The position numbers and the translations under genes were made by a program. 64,000 nucleotides of DNA from Rhodobiaceae bacterium (GTDB taxonomy: Bacteria; Pseudomonadota; Alphaproteobacteria; Rhizobiales; JANQQB01). This document shows, piece by piece, positions 8,707-64,000 of this stretch. The stretch is taken from positions 394 to 64,393 of the forward strand of contig JANQQB010000278.1 in NCBI GenBank assembly GCA_028285165.1, given 5' to 3'. Below the pieces are notes generated by a model. It searched no databases and was not told where the DNA came from. It was given only the letters and a program-made list of their open reading frames with translations. The stretch's first letter is position 1. Each line of letters opens with the position of its first letter.

Positions 8707-9813
8707 TCAGGCTTCGTCCGATGCCCGCTCGGGGAACATGGTCGCGATCGCCTCGACGGACGCGGCACATACGCCGCGCTCGGTGATCAGTCCGGTGACA
8801 AGCCGTGCCGGCGTGACGTCAAAGGCATAATTCGCCACATCCGAGCCGTCAGGCACGATGGTGACCGTTTCGATGCGTCCGTCGTCCGTGCGTCCGGTCA
8901 TGCGGGACACCTCGTCGCCGGACCGTTGTTCGATCGGCACATCCCGCACCCCGTCGCGGATCGTGAAATCGATGGTCGGGGAGGGAAGTCCGACATAAAA
9001 CGGGATGTCGTTGTCCTTGGCGGCGAGCGCCTTCAAATAGGTGCCGATCTTGTTGCAGACATCACCTGCCGCTGTCGTGCGGTCGGTGCCGGTGATCACC
9101 AGATCGACCAGACCATGCTGCATCAGATGGCCACCGACATTGTCCGCGATCACCGTATGCGGAACGCCGTGATGGCCGAGTTCCCAGGCGGTCAGCGAGG
9201 CGCCCTGGTTGCGCGGCCGGGTCTCGTCGACCCAGACGTGGATGTCCATGCCTTCATTGTATGCGGTGTAGATGGGGGCCGTTGCGGTGCCCCAATCGAC
9301 AGTCGCCAGCCATCCCGCGTTGCAATGGGTCAGCACATTGACGCGTTCGCCGGGCGCCTTGCGCGAAGCGATATCGGCGAGGATGGCGTGTCCGTGGCGG
9401 CCGATCGAGCGGTTGATCTCCACATCCTCATCACAGATCTCCCAGGCCCGCTGGTAGGCGCGTGTCTCCCGGTCTTCACGGGCAAGATTGCGCAACGCAG
9501 CGCGCATCTCGTCGAGCGCCCATTTCAGATTGATCGCCGTGGGGCGCGTCGCGTGCAGCGTCCGGTACGCGCTGTCAAGATTTTCGTCGGACGGATCGGC
9601 ACGGACAGCCAGGCACATTCCGTAGGCGGCCGTTGCCCCGATCAGCGGCGCGCCGCGCACCTGCATGCTGGCAATGGCATGGGCCGCATCGTCGACCGTG
9701 CGCAGTGTCACCGTCTCAAAAACATGCGGAAACCGCGTCTGGTCGATGATGGCAACGGACCATCCATCCTCGTTGAGCCAGATGGTTCGATACGGCGTGC
9801 CGTCGACATTCAT
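8707..9813 (-). CDS. mtnA: S-methyl-5-thioribose-1-phosphate isomerase
   Basis: [46 protein letters not shown] motifs. Confidence 0.96.
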
Positions 9814-29312: not shown

Positions 29313-30188
29313 ATGAGCGAAGCGGTATTGGGTGTTCTGGGCGGATCGGGCGTATACGACCTGCCAGGACTTGAGGATGCACGGTGGGAGACCGTGACAG
29401 GGCCGTGGGGCGATCCCTCGGACCAGCTTCGTCTCGGCACGATCGACGGGCTTCAGGTGGCGTTCCTGCCGCGTCACGGGCGCGGCCACCCGCATGCCCC
29501 CACGAGCATCAATTACAGGGCGAACATCGACGCATTGAAACGGGTCGGGGTAACCGATCTCGTCTCGGTGTCGGCATGCGGTTCGCTCAAGGAGGAGCTG
29601 TCGCCCGGCACTTTCGTGCTGGTGGACCAGTTCGTCGACCGGACGTTTTCGCGTCAGAAGAGTTTCTTCGGTCATGGCTGCGTCGCCCATGTCTCCTTCG
29701 GCGACCCGGTCAGTCCTCTGCTCGTCGATCAGGTCGAGGCGGCCGCGCAGGCGGAAGACATCCCGCATGTGCGCGGCGGCACCTATCTTGCGATGGAGGG
29801 CCCGCAATTCTCTACGCTTGCCGAATCCCACCTCTATCGATCCTGGGGCTGCTCGGTCATCGGCATGACCAACATGCCGGAGGCCAAACTCGCCCGTGAA
29901 GCCGAGATCTGCTACGCGACCGTCGCGATGGTGACGGATTACGATTGCTGGCACCATGAGCATGAAGCCGTTGACGTGCAGAGCATCATCAAGGTGCTCG
30001 GCGAAAACCGGGACAAGGCGCAGCGCCTGATTGCCCGGCTCGCCCGAACCTTGCCGCGCGAGCACGAACCGTGCCCGATCGGATCGGACACGGCGCTCGA
30101 CTATGCTCTGATCACCGCTCCGGACGCGCGGGATCCGGCTCTGGTGAAAAAACTCGACGCGGTGGCGGGCCGCGTCCTCAACGCGTGA
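29313..30188 (+). CDS. mtnP: S-methyl-5'-thioadenosine phosphorylase
   Basis: [46 protein letters not shown] motifs. Confidence 0.95.
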
Positions 30189-58032: not shown

Positions 58033-59319
58033 TTATGTGGGCCCCAGAAAGAAGTTCGGCAGAAACAGCGAGACGGCCGGTACGGTGGCGAGGATCGCCA
58101 GCACGATCACGAGCGGGATGAAATAGGGGATCACCGCGCTTACGATTTCCTCAAACGGAGCGCCGGAGAGGCGCGCCACGATGAACAGGCCGAGCCCGAG
58201 CGGCGGCGTTGCCAGGCCGAGGATCAGCGACATCTGCAACACGATGCCGAAATGCACCCGGTCGATGGCGTAGGCATCGACCAATGGCAGCAGGATGGGC
58301 ACCAGAAGCAGCTTGATCGTCACGCCGTCGATGAAGCAGCCCAGAAGCAGGACCGAGATCATCACCGCCAGAAGAAACAGGAGCGGTGTGTCGATCATGC
58401 CCGGAATGGCGCGGGCCATGTCCTGGGGAATCTGTTCGATCGCCATCAGCCAGCCCATGCTGGCCGCAAAACCGATGATGAGCATGATCATGGACGTGAT
58501 CAGCACCGTCTCCGTCAGCGCCTTGACCAGGGCCTGCCATGTCAGCGTGCGCAGGATCGCGCCGAGAAAGATGACATAGGCACAGGCCAGCACACCGGCC
58601 TCGGATGCCGTCGCAATGCCGCTCAGGATGCCGCCCATGATGATTGCCGGGGCGACCAGGGCGGCCGCGCCGGCAAGTGTATGGCTCCAGATTTCCTTCA
58701 GCGACGCGCGTTCCTGGGTCGGAAAGTCCTGGCGGGTCGCGAGATACCGGTTGAACACCATCAGGCTCAGCGCGACCAGCAATCCCGGCCCAATGCCCGC
58801 AAGGAACATGCGCGCGACCGAGACATTGGCCAGGAACGCATAGACGACAAGCGGTATGGAGGGCGGGATGAACGGCGCGACGATTGCGGAGACAACTGTG
58901 ATCGCCGAGGCAAAGGATGCCTTGTAACCCTTCTCGCGCATGGCACGGATTTCAACGGCGCCGAGCCCGGCGATATCCGCCGTTGCCGCGCCTGTGCCAC
59001 CGGCGAGCATGACGGATGCGAGCACGTTCACCTGCGCCAGCCCGGCGCGGAAATGCCCCACCAGCGCATTGGCGAGATTGAAGATGCGCTCCGTCACACC
59101 GATGGCGTTCATCAGATTGCCGGCGAGCACGAAGAACGGGATTGCCAGCAGCGAGGCGTGCGAGGCCGCTTCCAGCGCCTTCATGGGCACGATCCAGAGC
59201 GTGCCGCCGAAACCGGCAAGAACCAGCGCGCCGACGACGGCAACCCCGATGGCCATGATGACCGGCGTGCGCAGCGCGATCAGACCCAGAAAGACGCCGA
59301 AAAGCGCGACCGCTGTCAC
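58033..59319 (-). CDS. TRAP transporter large permease (DctM)
   Basis: LLAIPFFVLAGNLM, GLAQVNV, IPPSIP, TASEA, VHFG, TPPLG motifs. Confidence 0.95.
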   Translation of the reverse strand: MTAVALFGVFLGLIALRTPVIMAIGVAVVGALVLAGFGGTLWIVPMKALEAASHASLLAIPFFVLAGNLMNAIGVTERIFNLANALVGHFRAGLAQVNVLASVMLAGGTGAATADIAGLGAVEIRAMREKGYKASFASAITVVSAIVAPFIPPSIPLVVYAFLANVSVARMFLAGIGPGLLVALSLMVFNRYLATRQDFPTQERASLKEIWSHTLAGAAALVAPAIIMGGILSGIATASEAGVLACAYVIFLGAILRTLTWQALVKALTETVLITSMIMLIIGFAASMGWLMAIEQIPQDMARAIPGMIDTPLLFLLAVMISVLLLGCFIDGVTIKLLLVPILLPLVDAYAIDRVHFGIVLQMSLILGLATPPLGLGLFIVARLSGAPFEEIVSAVIPYFIPLVIVLAILATVPAVSLFLPNFFLGPT

Positions 59320-59828
59320 GAGACCGCCTTCTGGTCGTCGGTGATGTCCAGCAAGGCGCGAATGGAGCTACGCAACCGCAATACGAACTCGATCGCGATC
59401 AGAAAACACGACAGGAAGAACGGAACGGCGAGCCAGTAGCGCTGGATTCCAATCAGATCGATCGTGCCGACCTGTCGTGGCACAAGGACCGGCGCCTGGG
59501 CCAGAACCAGCACCATCAACGCAATGACAATCACTGCGACAAACGCTTCGGTCGCCGCACGCAGGCGCTCCGGCATGCGCCGGGTCAGGATGTCGATCGC
59601 AACATCCTGGCCGCGCCGGTAGATGACGAAGAACGAAAAGAAGATCACCCAGACGAAGAAGACGCCGGTGAGCGGAAACGCCCAGATGATTGCCTTATCG
59701 AAGAGCAGGCGCGACGCAATGTTGATGAAATTGATCACCAACATTGCGAAGAGAAGGGAATTGGCGATGAACAGGAAGGCCTTTTCCGCCAGTGCCAGGC
59801 ATCTTTCGATGCCCTGGACAAGCCTCAC
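59316..59828 (-). CDS. TRAP transporter small permease (DctQ)
   Basis: 4 TM helices, located between dctP and dctM with overlapping stop/start codons. Confidence 0.9.
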   Translation of the reverse strand: MRLVQGIERCLALAEKAFLFIANSLLFAMLVINFINIASRLLFDKAIIWAFPLTGVFFVWVIFFSFFVIYRRGQDVAIDILTRRMPERLRAATEAFVAVIVIALMVLVLAQAPVLVPRQVGTIDLIGIQRYWLAVPFFLSCFLIAIEFVLRLRSSIRALLDITDDQKAVS

Positions 59829-60829
59829 TGGGCCACCTGCGTCGCCCTGACCGTAGAAACGAACCCTTCCGGCAACTCGCCTTTCCCGTCCATCTCAGCG
59901 TAAAACTCCGCCATCTTGGCGACGATCGGCGCCGTGTCGATTTCCTGGTAGGTGACGCCGGTTTCCTTCATGCGCGCGATCGCCTCATCGGCGATGGCCG
60001 CCGTCATCGGCGCAAACTCGGACGCGACCTCGTCATAGGCCTCGAGGATCTGTGCCCGCGTCTCGTCGTCGAGACCGTTCCAGACGCGTGCGTTGGCCAT
60101 GAACGCAATGCCCTGCGGGTATTCGTTGTGGCGCACGATGTTCGGCGCGACTTCCTGGAAGCGCATGGATTCGACGAGCGCAATCGGGCTGTTGACCGCT
60201 TCCACGATGCCGCGGCCGATCGACTCGTACACGTCTGTCCAGGCAAGCGTGCGCACTTCCGCACCCAGATGGCGCCACGCCGCGGCGGCAAGTTCGTTCG
60301 GATGCATGCGCAGCTTGAGGCCTTCGATATCCTCCAGCCCGGCGACCGGTTTGGCCGTCACCATCACGCGATAGGGCCCGCGCACCATCTTGGTCTGGTC
60401 GCCGATCACGGTGATGCCGGCTTCGGCTTCGATCTGTTCAAGCCAGCCCGCAACAAGATCGCTCGCCATGAAGCGCGACCAGTGGTCGCGATCCTGAAAC
60501 AGGAACGGCGCGCTCATGAAGGTGATGTCGGGAACCCATTTGCGCAGGTAGGCGCCGCCCTCGGGGTAGAGATGCACCGTACCGAGCTGGAGCTGTTCGA
60601 GAATGGCGTCGTCCTTGCCGAGCTGTTCGCTGGGATAGACCTCGACTTTGATGCCGCCGCCGGTCTTTTCGCCGATCTTGTCGGCGAAGGCTTGGAACAT
60701 CTTGCCCTCGATGGATTCGGCGGTCTGCTTGTGCGCCATGCGCCAGGTTTCGGCCATGGCGCTGCTGAAGGGAAATGCCAGCACAGCGACCGCGGCCAGC
60801 ACCAGGCCACGCTTGAAAGAAATCATCAC
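59825..60829 (-). CDS. TRAP substrate-binding protein (DctP)
   Basis: Signal peptide, VEVYPSEQLG, PFLF, GLKLR, DVYESI..GIVEA. Confidence 0.93.
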   Translation of the reverse strand: MMISFKRGLVLAAVAVLAFPFSSAMAETWRMAHKQTAESIEGKMFQAFADKIGEKTGGGIKVEVYPSEQLGKDDAILEQLQLGTVHLYPEGGAYLRKWVPDITFMSAPFLFQDRDHWSRFMASDLVAGWLEQIEAEAGITVIGDQTKMVRGPYRVMVTAKPVAGLEDIEGLKLRMHPNELAAAAWRHLGAEVRTLAWTDVYESIGRGIVEAVNSPIALVESMRFQEVAPNIVRHNEYPQGIAFMANARVWNGLDDETRAQILEAYDEVASEFAPMTAAIADEAIARMKETGVTYQEIDTAPIVAKMAEFYAEMDGKGELPEGFVSTVRATQVAQ

Positions 60830-60943
60830 AACTCTCCTCTCATTTGACGTCTGAACGGTCCAAGGGGGGAAGGTGGCGCGTTGCGGCTTCTGTGGTTTCC
60901 GACACCATAAGCGGTATGGCTCGCCCCGGGAGCCTGTCGGTAC

Positions 60944-60957
60944 GCATTGAATGCATT
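60944..60957. promoter_or_regulatory. Putative operator between dctP and the RraA-like gene
   Basis: GCATT-G-AATGC inverted repeat overlapping an AATGCATT palindrome in the divergent promoter. Confidence 0.4.
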
Positions 60958-61076
60958 TGAAAAATTAAGCACTTTTGCCAGTGGACTCGCAAGCGCCGTT
61001 TCCGGCTTGTGTCGACGTGACCGCAACCGGTGTGAGAAGTTCAGGCCAGCCACAGCACCATGAAAAGGATTCCCGC

Positions 61077-61745
61077 GTGACCTATCAGATCAAAGCGATG
61101 CCGACCCCCGCGCCCGCCGCGCTTGTCGAGAAGGCATCGCGTGCCGAGACCGCCACCATCGGTCACCGCCGCCAGTTGGGCTTTGTCGACCGCACGATCC
61201 AGGGGATCGCACCGGGGCGGATTGCCGGCACCGCCGTGACGCTGGCAATCCCCGCGCAAGACAGCACGTTGCTGCACCACGTGATCCAGTTCTTGCGGCC
61301 CGGCGATGTTCTCGTGATCGACCGGCTCGGCGACGATCGCCATGCCTGTCTCGGCGGCGGCGTCGCGGTCGCCATCAATGCGACGGGCTGCGCCGGCGTG
61401 ATCCTCGACGGCCCGGCGACGGATCGCTCCGAGATCCTCGCCGAAGAACTGCCCGTATGGTGTCGCGGCTTTGCGCCTATCACGACGCGGATCTACGACA
61501 TCGGCGGTGCCTTCAACGTGGATGTCTGCTGCGGCGGGGCCGTCGCGCATCCCGGCGATCTGGTGATCGCCGACGAAAGCGGCGTGCTCATCATGCCCGT
61601 TGACGATTGCGAGGATGATCTCGACTGGGCACTCGGTAAACAGGCCGGCGAACCCGAGGCGCATGAAAGAATGCGCGGAGGCGAGCTCCTTGGCGATCGC
61701 TCAGGGGCGAGCGCCAAGGTGGCGCGTCGTCTTGATCAGGACTAG
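61077..61745 (+). CDS. RraA/HMG-aldolase family protein
   Basis: ETATIGH, GTAVT, PGDVLVID, ACLGG, LDGPATD, PGDLVIADESGV; GTG start after AAGGA. Confidence 0.85.
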   Translation: MTYQIKAMPTPAPAALVEKASRAETATIGHRRQLGFVDRTIQGIAPGRIAGTAVTLAIPAQDSTLLHHVIQFLRPGDVLVIDRLGDDRHACLGGGVAVAINATGCAGVILDGPATDRSEILAEELPVWCRGFAPITTRIYDIGGAFNVDVCCGGAVAHPGDLVIADESGVLIMPVDDCEDDLDWALGKQAGEPEAHERMRGGELLGDRSGASAKVARRLDQD

Positions 61746-62008: not shown

Positions 62009-62047
62009 CAAAGAAAGAAAAGGACACCAACTAATGTTGGTGCCCTA
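62009..62047 (-). terminator. Rho-independent terminator after the LuxP-like gene
   Basis: Minus strand GGGCACCAAC-ATTA-GTTGGTGTCC followed by TTTTCTTTCTTT. Confidence 0.85.
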
Positions 62048-62064
62048 AACTCTTAGACAATGGT

Positions 62065-63207
62065 CTAGCGTTCCAGTGTGCCGATTCCAGTGTAGCGGAA
62101 TGCCTCTTTTTCAAAGGCATCAACGACCTCTGGTCCGGAGTCTGACGCAACAATGTCGATACGACCTAAGAACACCAACGGGATCTCATCTTGACGGCCT
62201 TCAAGATCTGCGCGGATTGCCTCAGCAAGAGACACGCCAACGTCGTCGCTCATACGCATCGGCGTTGCCATCAATTCCCCTTCGCGTAGCGCTTCGATCT
62301 CATCCCCGGTGCCACCCCACGCGGAGGTTTGCACACGGTCTTGTGCATTTGCCGCTTGAATTGCAGAGATCGCACCCATCGCCATCGCAGTGTTGGCGTT
62401 ATGAATGTAGGTAACTTCCGGATAGCCGGAGAGGATTTGCTGGGTGCCCGCAAAGCCGCCCTCGCGCTGGAACTGTCCGTAATGCTCGTACGCCAACTTC
62501 CAGTTTGAATTCTCCTCGATGCAATCCCGGAACCCGCCGGAGCGCTGGTCATCCACGCCGCCTGGGATGCCGCGGATCATCGCGTAGGTACCCTCGGTGC
62601 CGAGGTTTTCAACTACCCATTTGCAGATATTCAGCGCGCCAAACAGATGCGAGAACGTGCTGTACATCAACGGTTGGTCATCACCCCAATCCTGCAAAGG
62701 TGTATCGAAGTTGAGGATCATCACCTTTTTTCCGGAGTCCATAATCAGCCGGATATCCTCCTGCTGCGCTTGCAGTTCGGACGGACCGAAGACGACATAT
62801 TCGAAGTCATCGGAACGTGCGACCTGTTCCGAGTAGGTCGACAGAAGCAAATTGTCGCCCATGTTCGTGGCAAACTGTGTTGCCTCGAAAGGCAGGCCCA
62901 TTTCATTCAATCGGGCCTCCATAGCCAGGTAAGAGCGGAGCCAGAAATCGGAGACGTCTAAGCTCGGATAGATGACGGCGATTTTCACCGGCTCGGATGG
63001 TGGGTTTTCCATCTGCGTTGCAGGTGCGCCGACAATCTTTTGCATGTTGGCGAGCACTTCATCGGTTTGCACCTGATGATACCACCAGTAATAACGTTCA
63101 TCATCGTCGGCGAGCGGCTTGAGCGGCAGCTCTTGTGCCAGGGCGACACCGCTTAGCGTCAACAATGCGGCGAGTGATGTCGCAAGCGTGTTTTTCTTGT
63201 TTAACAT
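62065..63207 (-). CDS. LuxP-like periplasmic binding protein (type I, AI-2/furanosyl-borate receptor family)
   Basis: Signal peptide; KIAVIYPSLDVSDFW, TPLQDWGDDQP, WGG, MRMSDDVG..LAEAI..DLEG, AFRY resemble Vibrio LuxP; start at ATG 63207 with a GGGAGG RBS. Confidence 0.85.
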   Translation of the reverse strand: MLNKKNTLATSLAALLTLSGVALAQELPLKPLADDDERYYWWYHQVQTDEVLANMQKIVGAPATQMENPPSEPVKIAVIYPSLDVSDFWLRSYLAMEARLNEMGLPFEATQFATNMGDNLLLSTYSEQVARSDDFEYVVFGPSELQAQQEDIRLIMDSGKKVMILNFDTPLQDWGDDQPLMYSTFSHLFGALNICKWVVENLGTEGTYAMIRGIPGGVDDQRSGGFRDCIEENSNWKLAYEHYGQFQREGGFAGTQQILSGYPEVTYIHNANTAMAMGAISAIQAANAQDRVQTSAWGGTGDEIEALREGELMATPMRMSDDVGVSLAEAIRADLEGRQDEIPLVFLGRIDIVASDSGPEVVDAFEKEAFRYTGIGTLER

Positions 63208-63277
63208 AGTCCTTCCTCCCTTAGTGTGAACCGGTTGAGGCGCGCCACCCTCCTGCGGCGCGCCCAATAACTGCGAA

Positions 63278-64000
63278 CTATTCGTCAAAACGTGCGTCCG
63301 GATTGTTGCGCCGCCGCAGATAGGCGTAGAATGCGATGGATGAGATAATGATGACGCCTGCCGCGACCAGCTGCCAGAAGAACTGGAAACGCAACAGCAC
63401 CAAGGCGTTGGTGACCATGGCAAGGAGCAGCACGCCCACCAAGGTGCCAAACATCGTGCCACGTCCGCCGAAGAGCACGGTTCCTCCGACGATAACCGCT
63501 GCGATTGTGTGCAGTGTAAAGCCGACAGCCGCGGTGGACTGAATCGCATTCAGGCGTCCCGTCAGCAAGATACCGGCAATTGCGGCACACAGGCCCATCA
63601 GTGCATAGAGATAAATTTTCTGCTTATCCACGTCGATGCCGGTCAGCTGTGCAGCCTCGCGGTTGCCGCCAATAGCAATGGCATAACGGCCTAACCGAGT
63701 GTGATGGTAAAGCACGTAGCCTATCGCCAGCGCGGCAAGACCGACAATCGCCGCGACCGGAAAGAACCCAAATACATGACCGCGCCCGAGAGTGGGCAGT
63801 GGCTCGGGAAAACGAGCGAGGACGGTTCCCGCCGCCAGCACAAGCCCCAGACCACGATAGATGACGTCCATCGCCAATGTGGCCATAAGGTCCGGTACCC
63901 GTAACTTTGTGATAACCAGTCCATTTGCGATGCCGCAAGTCGTGCCAACGAGCATAGCTGCGATCATTGCGACATAGACGTTGACGCCATGATCCTTGAT
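63278..64000 (-). CDS. Sugar-type (RbsC-like) ABC permease, 5' end outside the window
   Basis: NGLVITKLRVP..ATLA, TRLGRYAIAIGGNREAAQLTGI, IAAVIVGGT..GGRG; frame is open to the window edge. Confidence 0.93.
   Translation of the reverse strand: MKDHGVNVYVAMIAAMLVGTTCGIANGLVITKLRVPDLMATLAMDVIYRGLGLVLAAGTVLARFPEPLPTLGRGHVFGFFPVAAIVGLAALAIGYVLYHHTRLGRYAIAIGGNREAAQLTGIDVDKQKIYLYALMGLCAAIAGILLTGRLNAIQSTAAVGFTLHTIAAVIVGGTVLFGGRGTMFGTLVGVLLLAMVTNALVLLRFQFFWQLVAAGVIIISSIAFYAYLRRRNNPDARFDE

Follow-up and report, generated by a model that had tools for sequence, protein, structure and literature searches.

The periplasmic protein LuxP of Vibrio harveyi and V. cholerae (structures 1jx6, 1zhh and 2hj9) is the textbook case of a binding protein that only signals, acting together with the sensor LuxQ. 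According to PMC3794749, Arg215 and Arg310 of LuxP contact S-THMF-borate, the borated form of autoinducer 2 (AI-2). Sun et al. 2004 (PMC524169) and Rezzonico and Duffy 2008 (PMC2561040) describe LuxP as confined to Vibrionales and mention a few homologues from Oceanospirillales and Deltaproteobacteria encoded beside PAS-domain regulators, as well as one with neither sensor nor ATP-binding cassette (ABC) genes nearby. A 2025 survey counted 267 LuxP proteins in RefSeq, with AI-2 binding reported for three, and says of LsrB and LuxP together, without further detail, that they bind AI-2 'for transport into the cell' (PMC12268683). Full-text literature searches returned no paper reporting a homologue of LuxP encoded in the operon of an ABC transporter. 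Here, we characterize such a locus in a 64,000-nucleotide stretch of DNA from a Rhodobiaceae bacterium (positions 394-64,393 of contig JANQQB010000278.1, assembly GCA_028285165.1; the whole stretch is called the window below), where a 380-residue secreted protein with a pocket nearly identical to that of LuxP very probably feeds an ABC importer.

The enteric LsrACDB system likewise relies on a Peripla_BP_4 protein, LsrB, to feed a CUT2 importer. However, it combines the two-domain ATPase LsrA with the permeases LsrC and LsrD, whereas our locus encodes a single-domain ATPase and one permease, and E. coli LsrB has no significant similarity to our binding protein (BLASTP, E 1.8). RbsABC and half-size CUT2 systems such as FrcBCA share with it the domain family, the operon logic and an RbsC-like permease, and the ATPase found here corresponds to one half of RbsA, XylG or YtfR. 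The elements of the locus are as follows:

62065..63207, minus strand: gene for the LuxP-like (D-type) periplasmic solute-binding protein, 380 amino acids plus stop, from open reading frame and translation
63211..63220, minus strand: Shine-Dalgarno-like GGGAGGAAGG, read directly, its end 4 nt ahead of the ATG
62011..62046, minus strand: intrinsic-terminator-like hairpin and TTTTCTTTCTT, 11 pairs of which 6 are G-C, loop of 4
63278..64000, minus strand: RbsC-like permease, C-terminal 240 codons of 349 amino acids, running past the window to the equivalent of 64327
equivalent of 64332-65111, beyond the window, minus strand: single-domain ABC ATPase, 259 amino acids, one nucleotide-binding domain

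The open reading frame (ORF) of the binding protein starts with an ATG at 63207 and ends with the stop codon at 62065-62067. Its signal peptide, read straight from the sequence, covers approximately residues 1-24 (MLNKKNTLATSLAALLTLSGVALA, followed by QE), and Pfam assigns Peripla_BP_4 alone (2.8e-18). The permease stops at 63278, leaving the binding-protein gene 70 nt downstream; it carries BPD_transp_2 and scores 202.7 bits against its nearest NCBIfam model, RbsC. The last 1.3 kb of the contig, beyond the window, showed the operon order to be ATPase, permease, binding protein. In NCBIfam, the ATPase aligns with one half, the N-terminal one, of the YtfR, XylG and RbsA models (190-217 bits), and 202 bp of AT-rich non-coding DNA separate it from the contig end. 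At the other end, the hairpin itself (62046-62021) begins 19 nt past the stop of the binding-protein gene and is followed by the T-run; terminator-like sites in the region number 3 against 1.6 expected from shuffles, a count that is weak by itself. A secreted Peripla_BP_4 protein, a BPD_transp_2 permease and an ABC ATPase together make up the set expected of a CUT2 importer with its solute-binding protein. The initial annotation had proposed a secreted 380-residue protein closing an operon behind an RbsC-like permease and wired to an ABC importer instead of LuxQ, and each of these points holds.

Among solved or characterised proteins, LuxP is the closest relative of the binding protein by sequence. 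In an HMMER search of all PDB sequences, the best four matches were entries for V. harveyi LuxP (E 1.8e-48 over residues 52-373, approximately 27% identity). The next family, RbsB, followed at E 1.7e-13, and chance cannot account for a similarity of this order. Binders of ribose, allose and apiose matched at E 1e-8 to 1e-13, no LsrB chain appeared among the 46 PDB matches, and the RbsB equivalog of NCBIfam was not reached (49.9 bits, cut-off 337). The protein also shares with LuxP the N-terminal extension before the core of the periplasmic binding protein fold. An AlphaFold2 model built from an 83-sequence alignment had a mean local confidence (pLDDT) of 94 and a predicted template modelling score (pTM) of 0.90, with low pLDDT in the first 20 residues. 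In a Foldseek search, the top eight matches to this model were all LuxP chains, the best being AI-2-bound 1jx6 (E 6.3e-30, target template modelling score 0.92, root-mean-square deviation 1.9 Å), and the first match after them was RbsB (2.2e-19).

The pocket residues were compared by counting along chain 1zhh_A with an offset of +21 in the HMMER alignment, using eight positions which we take to be the AI-2 contacts of LuxP. Q77, S79, W82 and N159 of LuxP lie opposite D84, S86, W89 and N166 of our protein, and R215, T266, W289 and R310 lie opposite R222, T273, W297 and R318. Seven of the eight contacts are therefore identical, the exception being Q77, which is replaced by D84. This is the pattern that the initial annotation had described, and every LuxP motif pair that it quoted was found in the alignment to the PDB LuxP chains. 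We conclude that sequence, fold and pocket all mark the binding protein as LuxP-type.

An HMMER search of 1.84 billion representative sequences gave 1080 matches at E 1e-3 and 66 at 1e-30. Based on the eight contact positions, these fall into groups with the signatures QSWNRTWR (ca. 35 representatives), DSWNRTWR (which includes our protein), ESWNRTWR and a distant D[ST]FNRS.R; the equivalents of W82, W289 and R310, all present in our protein, are absent from RbsB-type representatives. A scan with one genome per species then yielded 306 stretches with relatives, of which 80 loci were kept, and the counts below are over 81 loci. According to record titles, these D-type relatives occur in Paracoccaceae and other Rhodobacterales, Hyphomicrobiales, Geminicoccaceae, Granulosicoccus (Gammaproteobacteria) and Trueperaceae (Deinococcota), with Pseudotabrizicola, Chelativorans, Tateyamaria, Roseobacter and Ruegeria among the cultured hosts. 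All-against-all clustering of the flanking ORFs placed a homologous RbsC-like permease within 7 kb in 80/81 loci, the exception being a contig that starts at the gene, and an ABC ATPase within 7 kb in 77/81; the order ATPase, permease, binding protein is kept in 80/81. As in the surroundings of LsrACDB, SorC/LsrR-type regulators and FGGY kinases are found near some of the relatives. The pocket is nearly invariant (n = 86: D in 85, S 84, W 84, R 86, T 84, W 84 and R 86) except at position 159, where Asn (44) and Ala (37) alternate in a split that seems to follow two subclades of the tree described below. One related cluster carries the IMG label 'autoinducer 2-binding periplasmic protein LuxP', a case illustrating that quorum sensing should not be assumed from an automatic LuxP label. 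Tallies of LuxP homologues in surveys such as PMC12268683 may likewise include D-type proteins.

For comparison with LuxP proper, 400 Gammaproteobacteria were searched with the representative P0012 at E 1e-40, and the only match was the D-type gene of the genome on which the sample was centred. Loci with Gln at position 77 (Q-type) were instead gathered by a metagenome scan with a Q-type alignment, giving 275 relatives, from which we retained 80 loci. The profile built from 33 Q-type proteins matches V. harveyi LuxP at 494 bits, which identifies the Q-type as LuxP proper. Position 77 is Gln in 33/33 aligned Q-type proteins and Asp in 85/86 D-type proteins. None of the 80 Q-type loci has an RbsC-like permease (tblastn, E 1e-8), and some ABC ATPase is present in only three. 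Downstream genes could be examined in 62 of the 80 loci, the 18 short contigs being left out. A same-strand ORF of at least 150 amino acids starts between -60 and +400 nt from the stop in 52 of these 62, and 41 of the 52 ORFs have at least 600 amino acids. Of ten sampled downstream proteins, nine contain the LuxQ-periplasm domain PF09308, and the outputs are eight histidine kinases and two GGDEF-EAL proteins. At two metagenomic loci (L151:7074-10253 and L161:7113-10154), the LuxQ-periplasm domain after a Q-type LuxP is fused to PAS-GGDEF-EAL in place of a histidine kinase, so LuxP-type sensing may feed cyclic di-GMP signalling outside Vibrio.

A LuxQ-type partner was also sought in the genome of origin, an assembly of 508 contigs that is 93% complete. 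A six-frame search with PF09308 gave no match, although the control genomes gave none either. We therefore built a hidden Markov model (HMM) of the LuxQ N-terminus from the first 300 residues encoded by 41 genes downstream of true LuxP genes. This model matched 52/52 Q-type downstream proteins, 11 of them outside the build set, and had no match among 21,798 open frames of the genome or 4190 ORFs of the D-type loci. The absence of luxQ behind the gene, which the initial annotation had read from the terminator, thus extends to the genome as assembled. Also, luxS gave no match in this genome, with 5/14 control genomes positive.

The D-type and Q-type proteins were then placed in a FastTree phylogeny rooted on RbsB-like representatives, with rows chosen by us and with some weak inner nodes (0.35-0.61). 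The Q-type clade and two D-type clades, A and B, are joined at a support of 1.0, and together they sit inside a grade of D-type representatives; the outer group of the tree holds a further ABC-linked pair, namely second copies in two of the loci (L009 and L019, the latter from Chelativorans sp. M5D2P16). Our protein belongs to clade B, which also contains the loci that bear MtnK and MtnA, and does not cluster with ordinary RbsB-type proteins. Because the LuxQ-coupled Q-type clade nests within ABC-linked D-type lineages, transport looks ancestral. Judged from sequences, it is more parsimonious that Asp77 and ABC linkage are ancestral and that Gln77 and LuxQ coupling are derived, and the clade of our protein would be the sister group of the LuxQ-coupled receptor and probably represents its ancestral function. 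A transport ancestry of LuxP, which had been raised as a possibility at the outset, fits this tree. We regard the architecture and the evolutionary inference as solid: a sizeable, mostly marine ABC-linked clade brackets the LuxQ-coupled clade and offers a testable account of how an AI-2 sensor came from a transporter.

The distribution of the operon is patchy. At E 1e-60, relatives were found in two of 400 other sampled Alphaproteobacteria, too few for a phylogenetic profile of the gene against MtnK, which was abandoned. A genome of the same genus has the paralogue described below and lacks the operon of the window, and a genome of the same order, a Hyphomicrobiales metagenome-assembled genome (MAG; locus L004), carries an 80%-identical copy. 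The G+C content of the operon is 55%, compared with 62% in the rest of the contig and in the genome. Patchy occurrence and low G+C together suggest that the operon was acquired horizontally.

Functionally, the locus is best described as a half-size CUT2 ABC importer with a single-domain ATPase, one permease and a binding protein, presumably assembled from an ATPase dimer and a permease dimer. The secreted protein would close round a small furanose in a LuxP-like pocket formed by S86, W89, N166, R222, T273, W297, R318 and D84; the loaded protein would then dock on the permease, and ATP hydrolysis would power uptake. The ligand we propose is a 5-deoxypentose furanose derived from S-adenosylmethionine (SAM), either 5-deoxy-D-ribose or 5-methylthio-D-ribose, possibly as a borate ester in sea water. 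Importer and ligand taken together, this is the best explanation we can offer, held with confidence somewhat short of even. On the ligand by itself we are tentative: a 5-deoxypentose-type furanose is possible but less likely than not, another small sugar or acid sugar is slightly more likely though still short of even, and AI-2 in any form is unlikely.

The proposal of a 5-deoxypentose derives mainly from neighbouring genes. In 7/81 loci (Paracoccaceae, Chelativorans and Trueperaceae), spread over three separate places of clade B, both MtnK and MtnA are encoded no more than 10 kb away. In one of these (L011, from Pseudotabrizicola sediminis DRYC-M-16), a co-directional string comprises a SorC regulator, a beta-hydroxyacid dehydrogenase, the ATPase, the permease, the LuxP-like protein, DhaK, DhaL, a TIM-barrel epimerase-like protein, a PRK09270 kinase, MtnK (TIGR01767, 455 bits, cut-off 275) and MtnA (TIGR00512, 418 bits, cut-off 279), with an FGGY kinase and a class II aldolase beyond it. 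In a Trueperaceae MAG (L043), the order is SorC regulator, MtnK, MtnA, a bifunctional aldolase/short-chain dehydrogenase (SDR; 990 bits, cut-off 831), the transporter, DhaK, DhaL, a dehydrogenase, a split transketolase and a RuBisCO-like protein. Gene sets of this kind recall the dihydroxyacetone phosphate (DHAP) shunt of E. coli, in which mtnK-mtnA-ald2 with a permease and the regulator MtnR catabolise 5-deoxyribose (PMC12632272); the seven loci share with it MtnK and MtnA as well as a class II aldolase and a regulator of the SorC type, the counterpart of the repressor MtnR/YjhU. For transport, that paper describes in the E. coli operon one gene, called a 'putative permease' or 'putative transporter', and no binding-protein system. 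In our genome, the corresponding genes lie away from the LuxP-like operon. The window itself contains MtnP (29328-30038, plus strand) and an MtnA homologue (8722-9813, minus strand). A nucleosidase for methylthioadenosine (MTA) and S-adenosylhomocysteine was not found in the 93%-complete assembly. Since MtnP and MtnK are present and no MTA nucleosidase was found, free methylthioribose or 5-deoxyribose would have to reach the cell from outside, and MtnK may serve the imported sugar here.

In region 15710-18812 of L043, the RuBisCO-like protein resembles MtnW (224 bits) and is accompanied by an LsrR-like regulator and an LsrF thiolase. A route from 5-deoxyribulose-1-phosphate through 1-deoxypentulose-5-phosphate to an LsrF substrate is chemically conceivable, though this is speculation.

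Several observations weigh against a 5-deoxypentose as the ligand. The operon is solitary in this genome, being followed by the terminator, an RraA-like gene and a putative TRAP (tripartite ATP-independent periplasmic) transporter, while upstream of it the contig ends. MtnK lies on another contig (C177, 12243-19696), where it divergently adjoins a CUT1 ABC transporter with SBP_bac_1, two permeases and two ATPases, and this transporter is an equally good or better candidate for the importer of methylthioribose or 5-deoxyribose. Most loci lack MtnK and MtnA, and in a large subclade (L023-L041) the neighbours are unrelated (a DNA alkylation repair protein, flavin adenine dinucleotide oxidoreductases and an S15 peptidase). 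Further, DhaK/DhaL directly downstream in ten loci fall outside any described 5-deoxyribose pathway. The equivalog-level LsrF and the LsrR-like regulator of L043 point to AI-2, and the identity of seven of the eight first-shell contacts with those of LuxP would by itself favour an AI-2-like ligand.

Another small sugar, ketose, polyol or sugar acid could be imported for ordinary carbon catabolism, the likeness to LuxP reflecting shared ancestry; candidates would be a tetrulose, a pentulose or an acid sugar of four or five carbons (C4/C5), its carboxylate pairing with both arginines. As a full account of the locus we consider this possible but somewhat doubtful. The ten loci with DhaK/DhaL directly downstream are in keeping with it, as are psicose-epimerase-like TIM barrels, beta-hydroxyacid dehydrogenases, FGGY kinases, class II aldolases and split transketolases that recur nearby, and many loci, this one included, have no specific catabolic partner. 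In the paralogous clade A, the relatives stand beside genes for LacI, a further ABC system for sugars, an SMP-30 lactonase, an SDR and a 2-hydroxyacid dehydrogenase. These neighbours suggest that clade A binds something else, perhaps an acid sugar or a lactone. However, no neighbour set is common to the whole clade, the LuxP-specific equivalents of W82, W289 and R310 that RbsB-type representatives lack are kept, and the sugar binders of known ligand-bound structure score far below LuxP in the PDB comparison given above. The binding protein of the E. coli apiose cluster is only 22% identical.

D-apiose was considered as a ligand on the lead of DhaK/DhaL, the TIM-barrel isomerase and the split transketolase, and was dropped as unsupported. 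The apiose cluster in question, from E. coli SE15, encodes an FGGY kinase and the RbsB-like binding protein just mentioned.

Import of AI-2 itself, with the protein binding S-THMF-borate and the ABC system serving eavesdropping, quenching or carbon scavenging in a host that makes no AI-2, appears unlikely. In its favour, the seven shared contacts include both arginines and are near-invariant in 86 relatives, and the closest structure to our model is AI-2-bound LuxP. The related loci belong mostly to marine groups (Paracoccaceae, Roseobacter, Ruegeria and Granulosicoccus), and sea water is rich in boron. In L043, LsrF (NF006081, 376.9 bits, cut-off 297) and the LsrR-like regulator (299 bits, below its cut-off of 486) lie 6-7 kb from the LuxP-like gene, in a genome that has luxS. 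Crystal structures of LuxP with other borated furanoses (4yr7 and 4yp9, according to their PDB titles) show that this type of pocket accepts borate esters.

The class-specific substitutions speak against AI-2. When 34 D-type and 34 Q-type proteins were compared, 33 positions were conserved and equal, the C-terminal AFR motif included, and seven were conserved but different (D84/Q, S186/D, D219/S, S223/G, A274/D, T300/G and P316/V, each given as D-type/Q-type). Apart from the Asp-for-Gln exchange at position 77, six differences remain, and for five of them a contact residue is no more than three residues away. The Asp-Asn-Arg-Ser/Thr-Arg framework also occurs in more distant relatives and thus predates LuxP, so both arginines and Asp77 are not diagnostic of borate. 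Enzymes for AI-2 processing are likewise scarce: LsrF occurs in 1/81 loci and in one of four genomes tested. It was not found in our genome by family search, a soft negative as the E. coli control was not positive, and tblastn with E. coli K-12 Lsr proteins agreed for LsrF and LsrG. The best LsrK match in the genome reached 175 bits against a cut-off of 528, in a search that is weak because the E. coli control also remained below the cut-off. As noted above, luxS was not found in the 93%-complete assembly. Of the transporter for borated AI-2 envisaged by the initial annotation, the ABC wiring stands, and borated AI-2 is one candidate ligand. Where relatives have informative neighbours, these are mostly genes of methylthioribose/5-deoxyribose salvage. 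Its broader alternative, another sugar-borate ester, may apply. That D-type systems import any furanosyl borate ester, whether borated AI-2 or a SAM by-product in borated form (5-deoxyribofuranose, for example), seems to us rather improbable.

Finally, it is very improbable that the protein is chiefly a sensor docking on a non-LuxQ chemoreceptor or kinase encoded elsewhere, with transport secondary: LuxP itself is a pure sensor partner and E. coli RbsB serves both transport and, with Trg, chemotaxis, but the transporter gene order is kept in 80/81 loci, no LuxQ-periplasm-like domain was found in the genome or the D-type loci, and nothing points to another partner.

The importance of the ligand extends beyond this locus. 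If a 5-deoxyribose or methylthioribose importer is confirmed, a missing importer for SAM by-products would be named, and AI-2 sensing would be tied historically to the scavenging of SAM waste. A borated ligand would open up the study of boron-ester transport and make this the first transporter known for a borate-sugar ester; LuxPQ would in that case have arisen by a LuxQ-type sensor capturing a transporter protein, with Asp77 changing to Gln. Import of borated AI-2 in particular would constitute a second, LuxP-based route of AI-2 interception.

Downstream of the operon, an RraA/HMG-aldolase-like gene follows immediately on the plus strand (60975-61745). Three minus-strand ORFs lie further downstream (59825-60829, 59316-59828 and 58033-59319; region 58033-61745), which from their order and sequence are presumably a DctP-DctQ-DctM TRAP transporter. 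We saw no evident tie between these genes and the LuxP-like operon. Outside the window, the genome encodes a paralogue of the binding protein that is 48% identical and likewise preceded by a permease and an ATPase. It is split across a contig break (C81:8341-9468, minus strand, and C117:1-1589, minus strand) and falls in clade A, whose members, Ruegeria and Roseobacter isolates among them, mostly have Ala at position 159. Near it on C81 lie a secreted 373-residue ORF and another ORF, which from sequence alone we take to be an SMP-30/lactonase-like protein and a LysR regulator.

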